Below are positions 7,080 to 36,457 of a DNA stretch of 64,000 nucleotides, one piece after another. Location: assembly GCA_963828735.1 (NCBI GenBank), contig CAWHFW010000006.1, forward strand, positions 64,001 through 128,000, in the 5' to 3' direction. Under the pieces are notes generated by a model that was given only the letters and a program-made list of their open reading frames with translations, was not told the DNA's origin and searched no databases. The translations under genes and the position numbers were made by a program. Position 1 is the first letter of the stretch. Each line of letters begins with the position of its first letter. This stretch comes from an uncultured Gemmatimonadales bacterium (lineage in GTDB: Bacteria > Gemmatimonadota > Gemmatimonadetes > Gemmatimonadales > GWC2-71-9).

Positions 7080-7996
7080 CGCGCTTCCTGCTCTCCCGGC
7101 TCGCGCTGCTGGTCCCGACCCTGCTCGGCGTGCTGGCCGTGACGTTCCTTCTTCTCTACGTCGCACCGGGCGATCCGGTGCAGGCCATGGTGGGAGAGCG
7201 GGCCGACCCCGAGACGATCGCGCGGCTCCGGGCGGAGCTTCATCTCGACGACCCGCTGCCGCTCCAGTTCGTGCGCTACGTCGGCGGTGTCGCTCGCGGG
7301 GATCTCGGCACCAGCTACATCACCCGCCGGCCGATTCTCGGAGACCTGCTCCAGCGCTTCCCCGCGACCCTGCAGCTCGCCGGCGCGGCCATGCTGTTCG
7401 CCGCCGTAACGGGCATCGCCATCGGCGTCTACAGCGCGTGGCGTCCGGGGAGCTGGGCCGACCGCCTCAGTGCGCTGGGCGCGTACCTGGGCGTCTCGTT
7501 TCCGGTCTACTGGGTCGGACTGCTGCTGATCATGGTGTTCGCGGTGACGCTCCGCTGGCTGCCGCCGTCCGGGGCGCGCGGCCCCGTCTATCTCATCCTG
7601 CCCGCGCTCACGCTCGGGATGCGCTCGGTGGCCTTTCTCTCGCGCATGACCCGCGCGGCAATGCAGGAGGTCCTCCGGAGCGACTTCGTCCGCACGGCCC
7701 GGGCCAAGGGACTGGGCGAGGGACGCGTGGTCCTGCGCCACGCGTTCCGGAATGCGCTCCTGCCCGTCCTGACGGTGCTGGGGCTCGACTTCGGCAGCTA
7801 CCTCACGGGATCCATCCTGACCGAGACGATCTTCTCCTGGCCGGGCGTGGGGCGGTATGTCCTCACAGCCATCGACAAGCGTGACCTCCCCGCGGTACAG
7901 GGGAGCATTCTCTTCCTGAGTCTGGTGTTCGTGCTGGTGAACCTGCTGACGGACGTGCTCTATGCGCGGGTGGACCCCCGGGTGTCCTATGACTGA
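7076..7996 (+). CDS. Peptide ABC transporter permease (DppB/OppB family)
   Basis: GTG start overlapping upstream TGA; PGDPV, GDLGTS, FVRTARAKGL, HAFRNALLPV, ETIFSWPGVG. Confidence 0.93.
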   Translation: MTRFLLSRLALLVPTLLGVLAVTFLLLYVAPGDPVQAMVGERADPETIARLRAELHLDDPLPLQFVRYVGGVARGDLGTSYITRRPILGDLLQRFPATLQLAGAAMLFAAVTGIAIGVYSAWRPGSWADRLSALGAYLGVSFPVYWVGLLLIMVFAVTLRWLPPSGARGPVYLILPALTLGMRSVAFLSRMTRAAMQEVLRSDFVRTARAKGLGEGRVVLRHAFRNALLPVLTVLGLDFGSYLTGSILTETIFSWPGVGRYVLTAIDKRDLPAVQGSILFLSLVFVLVNLLTDVLYARVDPRVSYD

Positions 7997-9576
7997 AGGG
8001 ACCGCGATGACGGTGCGCAGCGAGAGGAGGGCCGGTGTGGGAGTCACCCACGGCGGAGCGACGGCCCCAGGGCGGCGCCTCTCCGTCCTGAAGGCGGGCG
8101 TGGCCGTCGCTCTCCTGCAGCTCTTCCCCATCCTCACCGCGCTCTCCGCCCAGTCCCTCACTCACCGGCTCGACCGCCGCCTCGACGCGCCACCGATGGA
8201 CCGGAGCCTCTGGGGCGTGGCGGTCGTGGACGAGAAGGGGTCCGTGCGGTACGGACGGAACCAGCGTCAGCTGTTCATCCCCGCAAGCAACACCAAGATC
8301 GTGGTGGCGGCGGTGGCCTCGGCGTTGCTGCCGCCGGACTGGACCGTGAAGACGAGCCTCTACGCGGACGGGCCGGTGGCCAACGGTGTGGTGCAGGGCG
8401 ACCTGGTGCTCTACGGCCGGGGCGATCCCACCTTCGGCAAGCGCTGCTTCTCGACCGACACGATGCGTGAAGGCGCATGCGAGACCGACTCGTTCACGCG
8501 CCTTCGCCAGCTGGTCGAAGGACTGCGCGCGCGCGGCATCCACGAGGTCCACGGCGACCTCGTCGGCGACGGCAGCTACTTCGAGCCGACCACCGTACAC
8601 CCGGGCTGGGAGGCGTTCGATCTCAACTGGTGGTACGCCGCGCCCGTCTCGGCGCTGGGCTTCAACGACAACAGCGTCGACTTCGACTGGGGGCCCGGCA
8701 CGGCTCCCGGCGCGCCGGCGCTGATCACGATGTCGCCGGACGTGGGTGACTTGACCTTCGAGAACCGCACGGTGACGGTGGCCCGCGGGCGGCGAGTCGG
8801 ACATCGGCGACCGCTTCTACCGCGAGCCCGGCACGCTGCACGTCTGGGCGGAAGGCACGGTGGCGCTCGATCAGCCGACGCGGACCGAATCGTTCGCGAT
8901 GCCGGACCCCAACCTCTATACCGCTCGGGCGTTGCGGCAGGTTCTGGCCGAGGCGGGCATCGCCATCACCGGCACCACCCGCTCGACTACCGACTCGATG
9001 CAATATCGGCAAGCCCGGAGCGCACCAGCGCTCGCCGAGATCAGCTCGCGTCCATTCCGCGAATGGGTGTTCCCGATCCTCAACCGGAGTCAGAACTGGT
9101 TCGCCGAGATGGTGCTCAAGCAGCTCGGACGCCAGTTGGGCCGCGCGGGCTCGTGGGACGAGGGATTGGCGGTGGAGCGTCGCTTCCTGATCGATTCGGT
9201 CCGGGTGGACTCGACCGAGTTCAGGCTGCAGGACGGCTCGGGCCTCTCGAGCGGGAACCTGGTGAGTCCGCTCGCCTTTACGAAGATCCTGCGCTTCATA
9301 CGGTCGCACCCGCGCGCGCCCACCTTTCTCGCCGGGCTGCCGCAGTCGGGCGGCGTGGGCTCGCTTCGAAGCCGCTTCGTCGGGACGCCACTCGAGGGGC
9401 GGGTACGCGCGAAGGACGGAAGCATCGGCGGAGTGAACTCCCTTTCAGGGTTCATCGAGCGGGCCGACGGCCGCGTGTGGACATTCTCGGTGCAGGCGAA
9501 CCACCACACGCAGTCCGGGCGTACCGCGATCATGGCGATCGACAGCATCGTGGTGGAGATGGGTCGGGGGAAGTAG
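7989..9576 (+). CDS. dacB: D-Ala-D-Ala carboxypeptidase/endopeptidase (peptidase S13), frameshifted near 8785
   Basis: PASNTK (SxxK), GRGDPT, SQNWFAE (SxN), DGSGLS; the two halves lie in ORFs 7962.. and 8860..9576 and join after one indel. Confidence 0.88.
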
Positions 9577-10278: not shown

Positions 10279-11307
10279 TCAATCCTCCGTCTGCCCGAAG
10301 ATCGCCAGGTTCGACGAATGCCCCGGGTTCACCTTCGCCTTGGGGTTGATGTAGTGCACCGCGTTGTTCACCGCGATGCACGCCTCCGCGGCGCCGGTGG
10401 CGATGAGCTTGAGCTTGCCGGGATAGGCGGTGATGTCGCCGGCCGCGTAGATCCCCGGCACGTTCGTCTCCATGAGCTGGTTGACCTTGATGTCGGCCTT
10501 CTCGGTGTCGAGTCCCCACTCCTTGATGGCGCCGAGATCCGAGTGGAAGCCGAGGAGGGGGATGACGGCATCGAGCTCGAGCGTCTCCTCCTCCTTGGTC
10601 TTGCTGTTGACGATCGTCACCCGCTCGACCCGCCCGTTCCCCTCGATCCGCTTCACCTCCCAGAACGTCCGCAGGTCGCACCGGCCCTGGCGACACAGCT
10701 CGTGCACCTGATTGATCGTCGCGGCGTGCGCGCGGAAGCCGTCGCGCCGGTGGATCAGCATGATGGACTTGGCGACCCCCTGCAGGTTGACCGCCCAGTC
10801 GAAGGCCGAGTCCCCGCCTCCGACGAGGAGCACCCGCGCGCCCTCGAACTGCTTCGGGTCGAGGACCTTGAAGTAGAGCCCCTTCTCCTCGAAGGCGTCC
10901 TCGCCCGCGATGCCGAGGCGGCGGGCCTCGAAGGCCCCGATCCCGGCCGCGATCACGATGGTGCGCGACGGGTAGTCCCCGCCGTCGGTCTCGAGCACCA
11001 GATGACCGCCGTGATCGTCCTCGACCCGCCGCAGGCCGGTCACGATCTCGCCCAGGTGGGTGGTGGCGCCGAACTGAAGCCCCTGCGCGGCCATGTCCCG
11101 CACCAGGTCCTTGGCGAGAACCTTGGGAAACCCGGCGACGTCGAAGATGTATTTCTCCGGGTAGAGCGCCATCAGCTGGCCGCCCAGAGCGGGGAGCGCG
11201 TCGACGATCCGCGCCGACGCGCCCCGCATGCCCGCGTAGAACGCCGCGAACAGGCCGGTGGGCCCCCCGCCGATGATCGAGATGTCCTTCAGGTCCTGCT
11301 CTGCCAC
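10279..11307 (-). CDS. Ferredoxin--NADP+ reductase (TrxB-like, YumC type)
   Basis: GGGPTGLFAAFYAGMRG, LYPEKYIFDVAGFP, GGGDSAFDW, GKLKLIATG, C-terminal PGHSS; no CxxC. Confidence 0.92.
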   Translation of the reverse strand: MAEQDLKDISIIGGGPTGLFAAFYAGMRGASARIVDALPALGGQLMALYPEKYIFDVAGFPKVLAKDLVRDMAAQGLQFGATTHLGEIVTGLRRVEDDHGGHLVLETDGGDYPSRTIVIAAGIGAFEARRLGIAGEDAFEEKGLYFKVLDPKQFEGARVLLVGGGDSAFDWAVNLQGVAKSIMLIHRRDGFRAHAATINQVHELCRQGRCDLRTFWEVKRIEGNGRVERVTIVNSKTKEEETLELDAVIPLLGFHSDLGAIKEWGLDTEKADIKVNQLMETNVPGIYAAGDITAYPGKLKLIATGAAEACIAVNNAVHYINPKAKVNPGHSSNLAIFGQTED

Positions 11308-11411
11308 GTGCGCTCCTGCGGTGGACGACGGGGGTTCCGGGACAAGCGGTGGAATGTATAAAAATAGTCGGCGGTGTCATGTGCCCGGGCCCCTCCGGTA
11401 GTGTCGGGTTT

Positions 11412-11440
11412 TTGACTGTAACAGCTTCCGGTCGTAGCTT
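11412..11440 (+). promoter_or_regulatory. Putative sigma70 promoter of the small Cys-rich gene
   Basis: TTGACT-17 nt-TAGCTT, 35 nt upstream of the ATG at 11476. Confidence 0.55.
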
Positions 11441-11475
11441 GGAGGGTGGCGGGCATTCCCGCCAAGGAGGACCCT

Positions 11476-11559
11476 ATGGCAGAGGCAAGCTGCGGCTGCA
11501 CCAAAGGCTGTTGCGATACAGGGTGTTGCTGCGGGACCAGCGCCTGCAAGTGCGGGTGA
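11476..11559 (+). CDS. 27-aa Cys-rich metallothionein-like peptide
   Basis: AAGGAGG RBS (11464-11470), then MAEASCGCTKGCCDTGCCCGTSACKCG*; 9 Cys; followed by an intrinsic terminator. Confidence 0.8.
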   Translation: MAEASCGCTKGCCDTGCCCGTSACKCG

Positions 11560-11579
11560 GCGAGTCCGGTGACTGAGTG

Positions 11580-11610
11580 AAGGGCCGGGGAATGCTCCCC
11601 GGCCTTTTTT
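11580..11610 (+). terminator. Rho-independent terminator
   Basis: GGCCGGGGA-ATGC-TCCCCGGCC followed by TTTTTT. Confidence 0.85.
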
Positions 11611-11675
11611 CTGGGCTCGCCCGCCTTGCAGCCGCGGGAGAACACCGTGATGGCCGCTCTGGAGGTGGACGGACC

Positions 11676-12227
11676 ATGTCGATGAAGATCTACACCCGGA
11701 CCGGCGACGAGGGCGAGACCGGCCTGTTCGGGGGCGGGCGGGTGCCCAAGGACCACCCCCGCGTCTCCGCCTACGGGGACGTGGACGAGCTCAACTCGAG
11801 CATCGGGGTCGCCCGCGCGATCGCGCCGCTCGAGTTCTTCGATCCGCTGCTCGAGTCGGTGCAACGGGACCTGTTCGCGATCGGCGGTCACCTCGCCACG
11901 CCCGACCCCGGGAAGGTGGCAAAGGCGCTCGAGAAGGCAGAGCTGTCGGAGGCACGGGTCGCCGAGTTCGAGCGCGTCATGGACGCGGCCGACGAGGACC
12001 TGCCTGCCCTCCGCGCGTTCGTGCTGCCCGGGGGGACGCCCAAGGCGGCCGCGCTGCACCTCGCCCGCACCGTGTGCCGCCGCGCGGAGCGGAGCGTGGT
12101 CCACCTCGCGCACGAATCCGAGGTGCCGCAACTCTTCGTGGTCTACCTCAATCGCCTGTCGGATCTGCTCTTCACGCTGGCCCGCCTGGCCAACCATCGC
12201 GATGGCGCGGGCGACGTCACATGGTGA
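11676..12227 (+). CDS. pduO: ATP:cob(I)alamin adenosyltransferase (PduO type)
   Basis: KIYTRTGDEGET, YGDVDELNS, ARTVCRRAER, YLNRLSDLLF. Confidence 0.95.
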   Translation: MSMKIYTRTGDEGETGLFGGGRVPKDHPRVSAYGDVDELNSSIGVARAIAPLEFFDPLLESVQRDLFAIGGHLATPDPGKVAKALEKAELSEARVAEFERVMDAADEDLPALRAFVLPGGTPKAAALHLARTVCRRAERSVVHLAHESEVPQLFVVYLNRLSDLLFTLARLANHRDGAGDVTW

Positions 12228-12234
12228 GCGCCGG

Positions 12235-13327
12235 GTGAACGCGCCGCCGGTCGTCGTCACTCACGCCCTGGGCAGCTATCCGGTGTACGTCGAGCCTGGC
12301 GTGGTCGCCCGGCTCGAGGGGATCCTCGCCGAGCACCTGGACGCGCCGCGGATCGCGATGATCGCGGACAGCGCGGTGTACGGGCTGCTCCAGGCCGGTC
12401 ATCTCGGACGCTCGCCGTGGACCGGGGATGCGCCTTCTGTTTCCCCCCGGGGAAACCTCGAAGACGCGCGACCATTGGGCGCGACTCACCGACACGCTGC
12501 TCGCGCAAGGCTATGGCCGCGACAGCGGGATCATCACGCTGGGCGGCGGAGTGGCCGGCGACCTCGGCGGGTTCGTCGCGGCCACCTACATGCGCGGCGT
12601 GCCGTGCGTGCAGGTGCCGACCTCGCTGCTGGCGATGCTCGACGCGTCCGTGGGCGGCAAGACCGGCGTCGACACGCCGCAGGGCAAGAATCTGATCGGC
12701 GCATTCCATCCGCCGGTCGCGGTGCTGGCGGACCCGCGCGTGCTGGCGACGCTTCCCGAGCGTGACTATCGCGGTGGCATGGCCGAGGCGGTGAAGCACG
12801 GCCTGATCGCCGACGAGGAGTATTTCGCCTGGATGGAGCGGGAGGCGGACGCGCTCCTCGCGCGGGACGAGGCCGCACTCACGCGGCTCGTACGAAGAAG
12901 CGTCGAGATCAAGGCCGCGGTGGTGAGCGGGGACGAGCGCGAGGCGGGCCGCCGGGCGATCCTCAATGCCGGACATACGGTCGCGCACGCACTCGAGCGC
13001 GCGACGGACTTCGGGATCCCGCACGGCGAAGCCGTGGCGCTCGGCCTGGTGGCGGAATGCGCCCTGGCCGAGGCGGTGGGCGCGGCGGTGGGAGGCGTCG
13101 GCGGGCGAGTCTCGGCGCTGCTCGTCCGGCTCGGCCTGCCGATTCGGCTGGCCGAGCCGGTGGACGCCGACCGGATCATCGAGGGAATGGCGAGCGACAA
13201 GAAGAACCGTTCGGCCCGCGTGAGGTTCGCGCTGGCGAGCCGCCTAGGCGGCATGGATGCACAGGGGAGGTGGACGCGGGAGGCGCCGGAGCCTGCCGTC
13301 CGGCGCGCGCTCGACGCCATCGTCTAG
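12235..13327 (+). CDS. aroB: 3-dehydroquinate synthase, frameshifted near 12430
   Basis: LGGGVAGDLGGFVAATYMRG, PTSLLAMLDASVGGKTG, KNLIGAFH, LNAGHTVAHALE, HGEAVALG; the N-terminus (SYPVYV) is in the adjacent frame. Confidence 0.92.
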
Positions 13328-32635: not shown

Positions 32636-32959
32636 ATGGCCACCCGCACCCACACCGACCTCCCGCGCGCTGCTGAGTTGTTCCACGCCCTGTCTGACCA
32701 AACACGGCTGTCGATCCTCCAGCGCCTGCGCCTGGGTGAACGGTGCGTCTGCGACCTCACGGACGCGCTCGACGCCGCCCAGTCGCGGCTGTCGTTTCAC
32801 CTGAAGGTGCTGAAGGAGGCCGGTCTGGTGACCGACCGTCGGGAAGGTCGCTGGATGTACTACACTCTCAACACCGATGCCCTGGCTGAAGTGACCGAGC
32901 TGGTCGAGGCCATGGCCTCCGCTCCGACTGCAGCGGAGCGCCGGACCGGCTGCTGTTGA
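32636..32959 (+). CDS. arsR: ArsR/SmtB family repressor
   Basis: FHALSDQTRL, ERCVCDL, QSRLSFHLKVLKEAGLV, C-terminal CC. Confidence 0.93.
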   Translation: MATRTHTDLPRAAELFHALSDQTRLSILQRLRLGERCVCDLTDALDAAQSRLSFHLKVLKEAGLVTDRREGRWMYYTLNTDALAEVTELVEAMASAPTAAERRTGCC

Positions 32960-32971
32960 GTAACCCTTTTT

Positions 32972-32998
32972 TTGACAAACACATCAACCTTTTTTGAT
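32972..32998 (+). promoter_or_regulatory. Second ArsR operator upstream of arsM
   Basis: ATCAA-CCTTTT-TTGAT (32983-32998), preceded by TTGACA. Confidence 0.7.
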
Positions 32999-33007
32999 GA
33001 GGGCCAA

Positions 33008-33895
33008 ATGAGTACCAAGGACATCAAGAGCACGGTGCGAGAGCGCTACGGCCAGGCAGCGCTGCGAGTGGCCACCGGGTCGAAGACGAGTTGCTGCGGC
33101 GGCGGGTCGTGTAGTACCTCGACGCAGGACCCGATTACCTCCAATCTCTATACGGATGCCGAGACGGCCACGTTGCCTGCCGAGGCAGTGTTGGCTTCGC
33201 TGGGCTGCGGTAACCCGACTGCCTTGGCCGAGCTGCACGAGGGCGAAGTGGTGCTCGACCTGGGTTCTGGCGGTGGTATCGACGTGCTGCTGTCGGCCCG
33301 CCGCGTCGGGCCGACCGGCAAGGCGTACGGCCTCGACATGACCGACGAGATGCTGGCCCTCGCCCGCGAGAATCAGCGGAAGGCAGGCGTCGAAAACGTC
33401 GAGTTCCTCAAGGGCGATATCGAGGCCATCCCGCTGCCCGATGCCTCGGTGGACGTAATCATCTCCAACTGCGTCATCAACCTCTCCGGCGACAAGCGGA
33501 AGGTGATCGCCGAGGCATTCCGTGTGCTCAAGCCGGGCGGCCGGTTCGCGGTGTCGGACGTCGTGATCCGGGGCGAGGTTCCGGCCCAGGTCCGCTCGAG
33601 TATGGAGCTGTGGGTCGGGTGCGTGGCCGGAGCGTTGACCGAGCAGGACTTCCATTCGCTGCTGTGGGAATCCGGGTTCGAGACGATCGATATCGAGCCC
33701 ACCCGCGTCTACGAGTTCGAGGACGCCAAGGCATTCCTTGTCGGTGCTGGCTTGGACACGGAGGTGCTCGCCCACGAGGTCGGAGGCCGAGTCATGGGCG
33801 CGTTCGTCCGCGCGACCAAGCCGGTGGCCGACCCCGCGCTGGCGGAAGGCGCTCTGCCCTCACGGTCGTGCTGCGGCCCCGAGTGCTGCGCATAA
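33008..33895 (+). CDS. arsM: Arsenite S-adenosylmethyltransferase
   Basis: [34 protein letters not shown]; Cys-rich termini. Confidence 0.95.
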
Positions 33896-33920
33896 CATCG
33901 GTCGAGACCCCGGAGGCATC

Positions 33921-34403
33921 ATGACGGACACGCATGCGGAAGCCATCTCGACCCCGGATCACCGGTGCGTGACGCTGAGACGGGCCGGAGCGGCCGACTA
34001 CGAGGCGGTCGCGGTGCTGCTCCGCACCCTCAAGCTGCCCACCGACGGTGTTGCCGACTGGGTCGACCAGTTCTGGCTCGGGGAGCATGCGGGCGCGGTC
34101 GTTGGGGTGGCCGGGATGGAGCGCTACGGGGGCGCCGGGTTGCTCCGCTCGGTGGCCGTGGCTCCCGACTGGCAGGGTAGCGGCATCGGCCGGGCGCTAG
34201 TGGATCGGGTGCTCGAAGACGGTCGCGCCGCCGGTGTGCAGGACGTCTATCTGCTCACGACCACGGCCGAGCACTACTTCCCACGCCTCGGGTTCGCGTG
34301 CGTGGACCGCGAGTCCGTCCCGCCGTCCGTGCGGGCGTCAGCGGAGTTCACGGGAGCCTGTCCGGCGTCTGCGGTGGTCATGCGGAAGGCCGGAACCAAC
34401 TAG
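33921..34403 (+). CDS. arsN2: Arsenic resistance N-acetyltransferase ArsN2-like GNAT
   Basis: LLRSVAV, YLLTTTAEHYFPRLGF, EFTGACPASAVVM; within the ars operon. Confidence 0.85.
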   Translation: MTDTHAEAISTPDHRCVTLRRAGAADYEAVAVLLRTLKLPTDGVADWVDQFWLGEHAGAVVGVAGMERYGGAGLLRSVAVAPDWQGSGIGRALVDRVLEDGRAAGVQDVYLLTTTAEHYFPRLGFACVDRESVPPSVRASAEFTGACPASAVVMRKAGTN

Positions 34404-34426
34404 CGATATCAGGTCAGGAGGCCAAC

Positions 34427-34952
34427 GTGCAGGCGAACGACAAGGCGTACCGGGTCCTGTTCCTGTGCACCGGCAACTCGGCACGGAGCCAAATGGCCGA
34501 GGCGTGTCCTGAACCGGAAGGGGCAAGGCCGGTTTCGGGCGGAGAGCGCGGGCTCGACCCCAGCGGCTCGGGTGAACCCGCATGCGATTCAGACGCTGGC
34601 CGAGAGCGGCATCGAGTGGGTGGGCCACCCACCGCGTGGATTGACCGGCCTGGATCGCGAGCGGTGGGACTTCGTCATCACCGTCTGCGACCGGGCCAGG
34701 GAAGCGTGTCCCGTGTTCCCGGGGCAACCGATCCTGGCGCATTGGGGCATGCCCGACCCCGCAGCCGTCGAAGGGGAGGAGGCCGCGCGGCGGGCGGCAT
34801 TCGTCGATGCCCTGACGCTGATCAGCCGCCGCGTCGACCTGCTGCTCGCGCTACCGGTCGAGAAGCTGGACAGGCTCATCGTCGAGGCCCAGGTCCAGGC
34901 CATCGGTGAGGTGGGGACGGCGACTACCGTCGATGGGGATTCCCGGACGTGA
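34427..34952 (+). CDS. arsC: Arsenate reductase (LMW-PTP family), frameshifted near 34505
   Basis: VLFLCTGNSARSQMAEA, then after an indel SAG..VNP, VITVCD, CPVFPG, HWGMPDP. Confidence 0.88.
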
Positions 34953-35723
34953 GGTACGCGCTCATATCCGACATTCACGCCAATTTGCCCGCGCTCAAGG
35001 CGGTCCACGCGGACACTCTGCGGCGGAACATCGGGACGGTGTACCATCTCGGTGACCTCGTGGGCTACGCGCCGTGGCCCGACGAGACGGTGGCCATGAT
35101 TGCCGCGCTGGGAATCCCTGGGGTGGCGGGCAACTACGACTCGACCGTCGCCACGGACTACAAGCATTGCGGCTGCCGCTACGAAGACCCGCACCAGGAG
35201 GAGCTGTCGCACCTCAGCTACGACTGGACCCGTCGGCACGTGTCGGCCAAGACCAAGGCGTACCTGGGCGGTCTCCCCTTCCGCATCGACCTGCTCCCCA
35301 ACGGCGGCCACTTGGCGGGACCACGGGTCGTGCTGGTTCATGGCACGCCGACGCTCAACACGGTCTACTGGACCGAGGAGCGGCCCGATGAGTTCTGCCT
35401 CAAGATGGCGAACCATGCCGGAATGAAACCGGGAGATGTGATCGCCTTCGGCCACACCCACAAGCCCTGGCATCGGGAGGTGGGCGGCGATGCACTTCGT
35501 GAATACCGGGAGTGTGGGGCGGCCCAAGGACGGCGACTGGCGCGCCGGGTACGTCGTTCTGGATGTCGGTCAGGGACCACCGGCCATCGAGTTCGTCCGG
35601 GTTGAGTACGACCTGGACGAGGCCATGAGGGCCATGCGAGCTAGCGAGCTTCCCGACGAGTTCGCGGAGTACCTACGCACCGGGGGCCAGCCGACGGCCA
35701 CCGTTTCACCCGAGTCGACGTGA
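34949..35723 (+). CDS. Metallophosphoesterase (YfcE-like), frameshifted near 35488
   Basis: SDIHAN, LGDLVGY, GNYD, VHG, FGHTH, then NTGSVGRPKDGD in the next frame. Confidence 0.88.
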
Positions 35724-36457
35724 TGCATCCGACAGCCACGCGGCGACTGGCGGCGGAGGCAATCGGTACGTTCTTCCTGGTGCTCATCGGACCGGGCGCG
35801 GTCATGGTGGATGCCTACAGCGGCGGGGCCATTGGCCACGTCGGCGTGGCTCTCGCCTTCGCATTCGTGGTGACCGCCATGGTCTACGCTATAGGCCACC
35901 TCTCGGGTGCGCACATCAACCCTGCGGTCACGCTTGGCTTCTGGTCTGTCCGACGGTTCCCGGCGGGTGAGGTGATCCCGTATGTCATGGCCCAGTGCGC
36001 CGGGGCGGTCGCGGCCTCGACCGTCCTTCGGGGCGCGCTGGGCTCAGTGGGGTCCATGGGTGCCACCCTGCCCCAGGTTCCGACCAGCGCGGCCTTCCTG
36101 ATCGAATGGCTGCTGTCGTTCGGCCTGATGTTCGTGATCATGGCGGTGGCGACCGACGAGCGGGTGGCCGACGGCTTCGCTCCGCTGGCCGTTGGCGTCA
36201 CGGTGGGGTTCTGCGCGATGATGGGCGGTCCGCTGACCGGCGCCAGCATGAACCCAGCGCGTTCGTTCGGCCCGGCCCTAGTGGGCGGGCTCTGGACCAC
36301 GCATTGGTTGTACTGGTTGGCTCCGATCACCGGAATGGTGGGGGCCGCCCGATTGTATGACCTACTGCGCGCCACGGCACCCCCAAGCATGACGCGTCAG
36401 GCAACAATCGGCGGCATCCAAGGCCCCATCGCCGAGGTGAAGCAGCCGACTGAGTAA
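35720..36457 (+). CDS. MIP family channel (aquaporin/aquaglyceroporin)
   Basis: SGAHINPAVT and GASMNPARS motifs. Confidence 0.93.
   Translation: MMHPTATRRLAAEAIGTFFLVLIGPGAVMVDAYSGGAIGHVGVALAFAFVVTAMVYAIGHLSGAHINPAVTLGFWSVRRFPAGEVIPYVMAQCAGAVAASTVLRGALGSVGSMGATLPQVPTSAAFLIEWLLSFGLMFVIMAVATDERVADGFAPLAVGVTVGFCAMMGGPLTGASMNPARSFGPALVGGLWTTHWLYWLAPITGMVGAARLYDLLRATAPPSMTRQATIGGIQGPIAEVKQPTE

Follow-up and report, generated by a model that had tools for sequence, protein, structure and literature searches.

A micro-gene in an uncultured Gemmatimonadales bacterium encodes a 27-residue peptide with nine cysteines, whose sequence is best read as that of a minimal, His-free, single-cluster metallothionein-like chelator, an interpretation that we consider probable. 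The fuller proposal, for which we judge the chances to be even, is that of a separately evolved bacterial metallothionein family of about half the known size, with a nine-thiolate cluster packed into 21 residues, moving within a soil genus as a transposase-free promoter-gene-terminator cassette of ~220 bp that replaces housekeeping genes or lands between them. Judged by its coding-type conservation under purifying selection the gene is real, and the family is undescribed in the databases and papers searched. The window referred to below is the whole stretch of DNA that was analyzed, 64,000 nt in length, and positions are those of the window.

A Nine-Cysteine Micro-Gene With Its Own Promoter and Terminator

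The cassette lies on the forward strand, as do all of its elements, at approximately 11394..11612, boundaries that enclose the stretch common to homologous loci with unrelated flanks. The DNA alignment of seven loci placed the onset of conservation at ~11394 and its end after the terminator, and the similarity to the closest relative (G019) ended at 11392 and restarted at 11627. The -35 hexamer TTGACT (11412..11417) is separated by a 17-nt spacer from the -10 hexamer TAGCTT (11435..11440). A GC-rich 7-bp hairpin (11447..11464) appears in the MFE and centroid structures where the transcript is predicted to begin, and abuts the Shine-Dalgarno sequence AAGGAGG (11464..11470), which stands 5 nt ahead of the ATG. 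The coding sequence of 84 nt (11476..11559, with the ATG at 11476 and the TGA ending at 11559) specifies MAEASCGCTKGCCDTGCCCGTSACKCG, 27 amino acids with nine Cys and a mass of 2.55 kDa (2554 Da, or 2423 Da without the Met), and is followed by an intrinsic terminator (11583..11610) with a 9-bp stem and a 4-nt loop (11583-11604) and a T6 tract (11605-11610). The preliminary description of this DNA had placed promoter, ribosome-binding site, ORF and terminator at these same positions and had counted 27 residues, nine Cys, no His and no aromatics, all of which was confirmed.

An alternative in-frame GTG at 11446 would open a 37-codon ORF. The ATG at 11476 was chosen as the start, since the GGAGG is conserved and the GTG sits within the 5' hairpin; GGAGG was found at -18..-4 of the start in all 46 distinct homologous coding sequences, a count that is partly built in, because the start-picking script favored starts with GGAG or GAGG upstream. 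AlphaFold2, run on the 37-codon frame as a single sequence with no metals, returned a pLDDT of 61 and a pTM of 0.28 and was not used.

The -10 box of the window carries only three of the six consensus letters, and a consensus scanner called neither the window promoter nor the window terminator; both calls therefore rest on conservation among the homologues. TAnnnT was present 36-56 nt upstream in 46/46 of these, compared with 26% of shuffles, and its fifth letter was T in 40/46, though the search did not demand it. When the homologues were anchored on the -10 box, the -35 box at 17-nt spacing showed T at -23 in 35/46 and G at -21 in 33/46; other family members have different -35 hexamers, spaced by 17-18 nt. 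A hairpin of varying sequence was predicted at the same 5' place in most of the 46 homologues and may serve as an mRNA stabilizer. On the 3' side of the stop codon, a hairpin of -12 kcal/mol or lower was found in 42/46 and a T-rich tail in 35/46. Promoter, Shine-Dalgarno sequence and terminator travel with the gene in the homologues, in agreement with the original view of a stand-alone transcription unit.

Homologous Loci and Coding-Type Conservation

A degenerate pattern retrieved 16 loci among 185,579 species genomes and 36 in metagenomes, which with the window amounted to 53 loci, 46 distinct coding sequences and 43 peptides. The peptides have 25-28 residues (2.4-2.6 kDa), lack His, Trp and Tyr, and have a single Phe between them, counted over the whole set; the register CxC-x3-CC-x3-CCC-x4-CxC, with its nine Cys, was unchanged in 46/46. 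All three types of stop codon occur, with at most one residue between the last Cys and the stop.

Across the 21-codon core, pS was 0.66 and pN 0.08, and the mean pairwise difference at codon positions 1, 2 and 3 was 0.08, 0.08 and 0.44. Since the search pattern left only eight of the 21 core codons free (the other 13 were fixed), those eight were measured separately and gave a pS of 0.58 against a pN of 0.22. Thr16, Cys19 and Cys21 were invariant in 45/45 cores, though the pattern left them free. A looser pattern matched 79 stretches, of which 62 were poly-Cys frames without the family anatomy and 17 were family members (G486 being the seventeenth genome member of this set); the first Cys-Gly, the Asp-Thr and Thr16 were kept in 17/17 of these members, though unfixed there. 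The core comparison was gap-free and scripted, and a six-frame identity test, biased by the search pattern, was left uncounted. Because related sequences are not independent, these selection figures are descriptions and not statistical tests. They bear out the claim, made from the window alone, that this is a real short gene: Cys are conserved, with synonymous change far above non-synonymous change, in 46 distinct coding sequences.

The frequency of such ORFs by chance was assessed in a census of the ORFs of the own genome that start with ATG and encode 15-80 aa. Among these 40,308 short ORFs, five had at least six Cys and at least 20% Cys, and the window ORF alone combined nine Cys with a Shine-Dalgarno sequence. 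The gene is single copy in its own genome.

The same conservation bears on the possibility that the peptide stores thiol or sulfur and buffers redox state, either as a cheap reserve of Cys or by taking up oxidants and sulfane sulfur, with metal binding incidental. The one-third Cys content, the lack of an apparent metal operator and the mostly non-metal neighbors described below would all suit it, and the strong-looking promoter, the Shine-Dalgarno sequence and the 5' hairpin would suit an abundant product. A store has no need of a fixed register, yet the spacing is unchanged in 46/46 and the free Asp-Thr, Gly and Thr are kept, which points to a defined fold, and we regard this explanation as unlikely.

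The peptides also have a variable N-terminus ahead of an invariant Cys-rich core, an arrangement reminiscent of RiPP precursors, in this case of a thioether or oxazolone chalkophore whose maturing enzyme would be encoded elsewhere. Cys-rich RiPP chelators have been discussed for soil bacteria (in PMC8692599), and 14 radical-SAM matches were found in the own genome. However, just 2-5 variable residues separate the Met from the first Cys, a stretch too short for a leader, and the own genome (97.5% complete) contains no MNIO and no SPASM domain. Radical SAM, MNIO, lanthionine and YcaO families were likewise absent from the 155 neighbor proteins scanned, many of the metagenome contigs being short; among these proteins the initial observation that no RiPP enzyme is adjacent was upheld. 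A RiPP precursor is therefore a very improbable identity for the peptide.

Distribution of the Family

Within the genus, a frame-free BLASTN search hit 26 of the 103 genomes. Apart from the own genome, 14 of them hold the ORF intact with its register unchanged, and one more has a degraded copy; the remaining matches were short and mostly to the terminator. A short pattern occurred at 28 places in 27/103 genomes, comprising 17 intact members, one degraded copy, nine out-of-frame chance matches and one ArsM loop. The gene is intact in 17/103 genomes of this Gemmatimonadales genus, including G095, which also forms one row of the seven-locus alignment and whose peptide is identical to one in the set. 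About five in six of the genus genomes have no match, many of these 103 genomes being incomplete.

All 17 genome members are recorded as Gemmatimonadales or Gemmatimonadota. In a sample of the phylum (401 genomes, 147 genera), the core was found in six genomes, all of this genus, and gave no match in the 146 other sampled genera. The exact core pattern was absent from the viral contigs, and the plasmids gave no match. These range searches were based on patterns and BLASTN, which distant relatives with other spacers could escape; the matches listed for Cys-only DNA patterns were dominated by triplet repeats and uninformative on such relatives. By the distribution of its sequences, the family is restricted to one genus of uncultured soil bacteria and is mobile.

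The degraded copy (G106; L040 1478-1533) retains the C-terminal half and the terminator and has lost the N-terminal Cys; it lies ~800 nt from an IS200-type transposase. This copy, the patchy and mobile occurrence and the repeats that flank four loci would fit a micro-element that is selfish or close to neutral, or else a small RNA with an incidental ORF. Against both stand the single copy in the own genome, the difference at third codon positions of 0.44 against 0.08 and 0.08, the frame-neutral BLASTN search, which led to 14 other genomes with this frame intact, and the lack of an Rfam match at gathering score. Either form is highly unlikely in our estimation.

Placement of the Cassette in Different Neighborhoods

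In the window, the cassette is preceded by a divergent gene for a thioredoxin-reductase-like flavoprotein (10279..11307, reverse strand; Pyr_redox_2, with TIGR01292 below cut-off), named FNR in the preliminary description, and followed by a gene for a PduO-type cobalamin adenosyltransferase (11676..12227, forward strand; TIGR00636 over cut-off, PF01923). A remnant (11627..11685, forward strand) on the downstream side preserves the final 18 codons of a gene for ~380 aa, QPRENTVMAALEVDGPCR with its stop codon, which corresponds to the gene end QPREN-x-V-x-AAAEVDGPCR in L002 and L005. The FNR-pduO interval measures 374 nt in the window, compared with 1273-1339 nt in G019, G029, G018 and G031, and in the two of these that were translated, G019 and G031, it is filled by the ~380-aa ORF (L002 1613-2776, reverse strand, and L005 330-1559, forward strand). 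The start of this gene is lipoprotein-like by eye, and no Pfam match was obtained for it in L002 (G019). As just those final codons survive in the window, the cassette has replaced this gene of ~1.1 kb, which is also missing from several cassette-free relatives.

Two genes of the window appear to have broken frames. The aroB gene (12217-13327) seemingly starts in another frame near 12430, with a profile match from position 54 only, and a D-Ala-D-Ala carboxypeptidase-like gene (7962-9576; identified by eye) is split over frames. Both breaks are probably assembly indels.

None of the 16 other FNR-pduO intervals measured, that of G003 among them, holds the cassette. The check originally suggested for the gene, a search of this interval in related genomes, would have failed because the cassette moves. 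Loci were labeled by neighboring Pfam families, which was possible for 36/46 (10 had no labeled neighbor), and these 36 fell into 27 different neighborhoods. The clade of seven cassettes to which the window belongs (support 98/98) occupies six different places. In 13 of the 35 loci where the following gene could be called, it is encoded on the opposite strand.

L054, L064 and L060 are bounded on both sides by direct repeats, of 16, 25 and 20 nt respectively, and L062 by an inward-pointing inverted repeat; these are possible insertion footprints. No common end or transposase for the cassette emerged. A pattern for an insertion-sequence end matched the own genome alone, but was too strict even for the copy of G121; no transposase was found in the 11 ORFs scanned around that copy and around a hairpin of the own genome. 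This intergenic hairpin, between two kinase genes (G000:C5:1066768; L381 ~3768), has ~15 nt in common with the 5' boundary of the cassette. In L321, an apparent aminotransferase gene tail (by eye) stands right after the terminator and is perhaps a second gene replacement.

Metal-related genes occur in few of the 27 neighborhoods, namely a CopA-like ATPase fragment (L062), PCuAC (L330), PpoB2 (L055) and a chromate transporter (L333). The CopA-like P-type ATPase gene of L062 (1-1062) is in pieces, ~3 kb upstream of the cassette.

The neighborhoods also bear on whether the peptide is a structured miniprotein that carries a cofactor or binds a partner, holding an Fe-S cluster, for instance, or passing Cu or Zn to one client. 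The strong conservation of non-Cys residues would agree with such a role, as would the flavin reductase next to the gene in the window and the one clade whose loci follow a gene for a SufR-like HTH protein (L053, scoring below cut-off; the same family in L320 and L342). By contrast, no partner gene travels along through the 27 neighborhoods among 36 loci, and nine Cys in 21 residues exceed the need of one Fe-S cluster. We consider a carrier improbable.

Transcripts and Promoter Motifs

Assembled soil RNA libraries were inspected over a 901-nt stretch. A contig of 154 nt from one of the four libraries, the only one of its run on this stretch, is identical to 11503-11656 and runs 46 nt beyond the terminator. 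This contig fits expression, but assembled contigs show neither strand nor ends, the library may contain DNA, and the sequence passes the terminator. The contigs of the RNA runs X1, X4 and X6 do not cover the ORF, and absence in contigs proves nothing; in two RNA runs the contigs skip 281 and 306 nt across the window site, as cassette-free relatives would.

The contig that crosses the terminator, and the position of this terminator behind tandem Cys codons, recall a Cys-sensing leader peptide, in which ribosome stalling at Cys codons would govern read-through into the next gene. Polycysteine short ORFs are described as attenuators in mycobacteria (10.1101/834739), where they have consecutive Cys codons as here. 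However, those ORFs are presented in that report as leaderless and located ahead of cysteine-related operons, whereas the present gene comes with a Shine-Dalgarno sequence and a terminator of its own, and what lies downstream of it varies. Downstream genes run in the opposite direction in the 13/35 loci mentioned above, and the co-directional ones are mutually unrelated and include no cysteine or sulfate gene. In addition, 41 of the 42 transcripts folded without a ribosome were predicted to form the terminator stem, 5-89 nt after the stop, at P>0.8, which would leave no antiterminator to compete with it, and it is the identity of the amino acids that is conserved, beyond the count of Cys codons. 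Attenuation is accordingly a most unlikely function.

An arsenic-resistance cluster is present in the window 21 kb downstream of the gene (32636-36457), with an ArsR ending in Cys-Cys, an ArsM-like methyltransferase and a GNAT protein; by eye it continues with a piece resembling ArsC, followed by a metallophosphoesterase and an aquaporin. The own genome has another arsM at G000:C2:311787, and arsM was matched in 91/103 genus genomes, a tally that includes G003, G065, G095 and G096. None of the main conclusions rests on these four genomes or on G486. The palindrome ATCAA-N6-TTGAT was exact in 25/25 arsM loci (L506-L530, upstream of arsM) and in the window stands ahead of arsR as well as arsM; it is likely the ArsR operator of the genus. 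An origin of the micro-gene from the N-terminal loop of ArsM was rejected: the ArsM of G124 has a motif look-alike, yet among the 20 loops compared, which were those listed from the 25 loci, the sequence is variable, and the likeness was taken as a coincidence.

This putative ArsR operator was found, within one mismatch, in none of the 46 cassette promoters. Palindromes in these promoters were near shuffle level (best arm 4.65 compared with 4.41). A CsoR-type motif was also absent from 46/46 promoters, a weak result since the motif failed as well upstream of the csoR of the genome itself. A 16-nt upstream motif was discarded as an operator, being present at few loci only and in both orientations. 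A CsoR/RcnR-family repressor gene lies behind what by eye is a P-type ATPase gene for heavy metals elsewhere in the own genome (L505; G000:C5:1499756).

Database and Literature Searches

The window peptide matched no family in NCBIfam and Pfam, 18 homologues matched none in Pfam, six family peptides matched none in PHROGs, and no PDB sequence was found at E≤10; these blanks, like that for the plasmids, are weak, because HMMER filters and BLAST masking are harsh on short low-complexity queries. Rfam gave 11 matches, none reaching the gathering score. In the Atlas, the best score for the 37-codon frame was 0.80, to unnamed and uninformative clusters, and a Metallothio_5 cluster appeared at only 0.76, a chance-level score. 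The ten exact sequences looked up were absent from 15 billion called proteins.

No paper was found with the motif CCDTGCCCG, a search with subscription journals, small-protein catalogues and bioRxiv supplements outside its scope. The matches listed for metallothioneins and Gemmatimonads included no such gene, as judged by titles and the starts of abstracts, and the family motifs were absent from four supplementary files of PMC11705764. The initial suggestion that the gene belongs to no described family thus held in NCBIfam, Pfam, PHROGs, the PDB and the literature searched.

Comparison With Known Metallothioneins and Proposed Metal Binding

The peptide has the low mass, the high content of Cys in CxC and CC clusters and the few or no aromatics that are among the features by which metallothioneins are operationally defined. 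It is not a member of the SmtA/BmtA, MymT or fungal seven-Cys families. SmtA, BmtA and PmtA (PF02069) are likewise small, gene-encoded, Cys-rich and bacterial; as described in PMC12193353, PMC13578184 and PMC10612145, they have ~56-70 aa, ~16% Cys, His, aromatics and a zinc-finger fold and are repressor-controlled, whereas the present peptide has 27 aa and 33% Cys, is His-free, gives no HMM match and has no shared operator. An SmtA-type gene (PF02069) was detected in 0/103 genus genomes, the Synechococcus control being positive. Mycobacterial MymT is also a short Cys-rich gene product with CxC motifs; its description in PMC6337107 gives 4.9 kDa, binding of 4-6 Cu(I) and membership of the RicR regulon, in contrast to 2.55 kDa, no match and no operator found here.

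Nearest in size are the fungal family-8 Cu-thioneins of Neurospora crassa and Agaricus, of ~26 residues, which according to PMC4755600 share Cys-only ligands, Gly/Ser/Thr/Ala spacers and a CxC near the N-terminus and near the end. Their pattern is given there as X2-CXC-X5-CXC-X3-CXC-X2-C-X3, with seven Cys, whereas the bacterial peptides have nine in CxC-x3-CC-x3-CCC-x4-CxC; no homology is claimed from the likeness, and in a comparison by eye the peptides fall outside the family-8 pattern. The same source reports that a 26-residue fungal peptide with seven Cys works as a metallothionein.

Nine Cys also characterize animal beta-type domains (mollusc beta1-3, PMC7826182; cephalochordate and vertebrate beta, PMC8476144). 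The likeness to the vertebrate beta domain proposed at the outset agreed in number; in spacing it disagreed with the mollusc beta1-3 and cephalochordate patterns compared. Mollusc beta1, as given in PMC7826182, spreads its nine Cys in CxC pairs over 27 residues, compared with 21 residues and CC and CCC clusters here, and in these accounts the animal domains are parts of two- or multi-domain proteins, whereas the micro-gene peptide stands alone. CCC and CC clusters are shared with the Tetrahymena Cd-thioneins, reported in PMC4862169 as typical of these and nearly absent from the Tetrahymena Cu-thioneins, but the Cd-thioneins described are eukaryotic, modular and ~100-190 aa long.

Under the metallothionein-like reading, the monocistronic cassette would be translated into a cytoplasmic peptide of 2.4-2.6 kDa, the location following from the 3-5 residues before the first Cys, in which no signal peptide fits. 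The odd number of Cys and the lack of a signal peptide would also argue against a disulfide-bonded secreted peptide. The nine thiolates would wrap soft metal ions into one cluster, like a metallothionein domain, and the peptide-metal cluster would buffer or detoxify such ions. Nine-Cys domains are reported to bind three divalent ions (PMC7826182; PMC10612145). For the metal itself, three Zn(II)/Cd(II) ions are our first choice at slightly under even chances, Cu(I)/Ag(I) is a tentative second possibility, and others such as As(III) or Hg(II) are rather doubtful.

The described bacterial metallothionein genes are metal-induced, as stated in PMC12193353. Expression of the present gene would be roughly constitutive, since no shared operator emerged. 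The lack of a conserved metal operator, the mostly non-metal neighbors and the lack of a profile or structure match to any metallothionein all count against the metallothionein reading, as do the RNA contig that passes the terminator and the missing matches in about five of six genus genomes.

Implications

The cassette would spread and relocate within one genus as a ~220-bp unit, and the many locations of this unit raise the separate question of how such cassettes move. If the peptide binds metals, it would offer a synthesizable 27-residue test of cluster building with CC and CCC, for which the 43 natural variants mark the free positions. Characterized bacterial metallothioneins are few; a 2024 UniProt set includes, according to PMC11705764, six prokaryotic metallothioneins from three species, the prokaryotic ones preferring His. 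The family described here is His-free, has 33% Cys and is invisible to gene callers. Should it bind metals, the scarcity of bacterial metallothioneins would be partly an annotation artefact.
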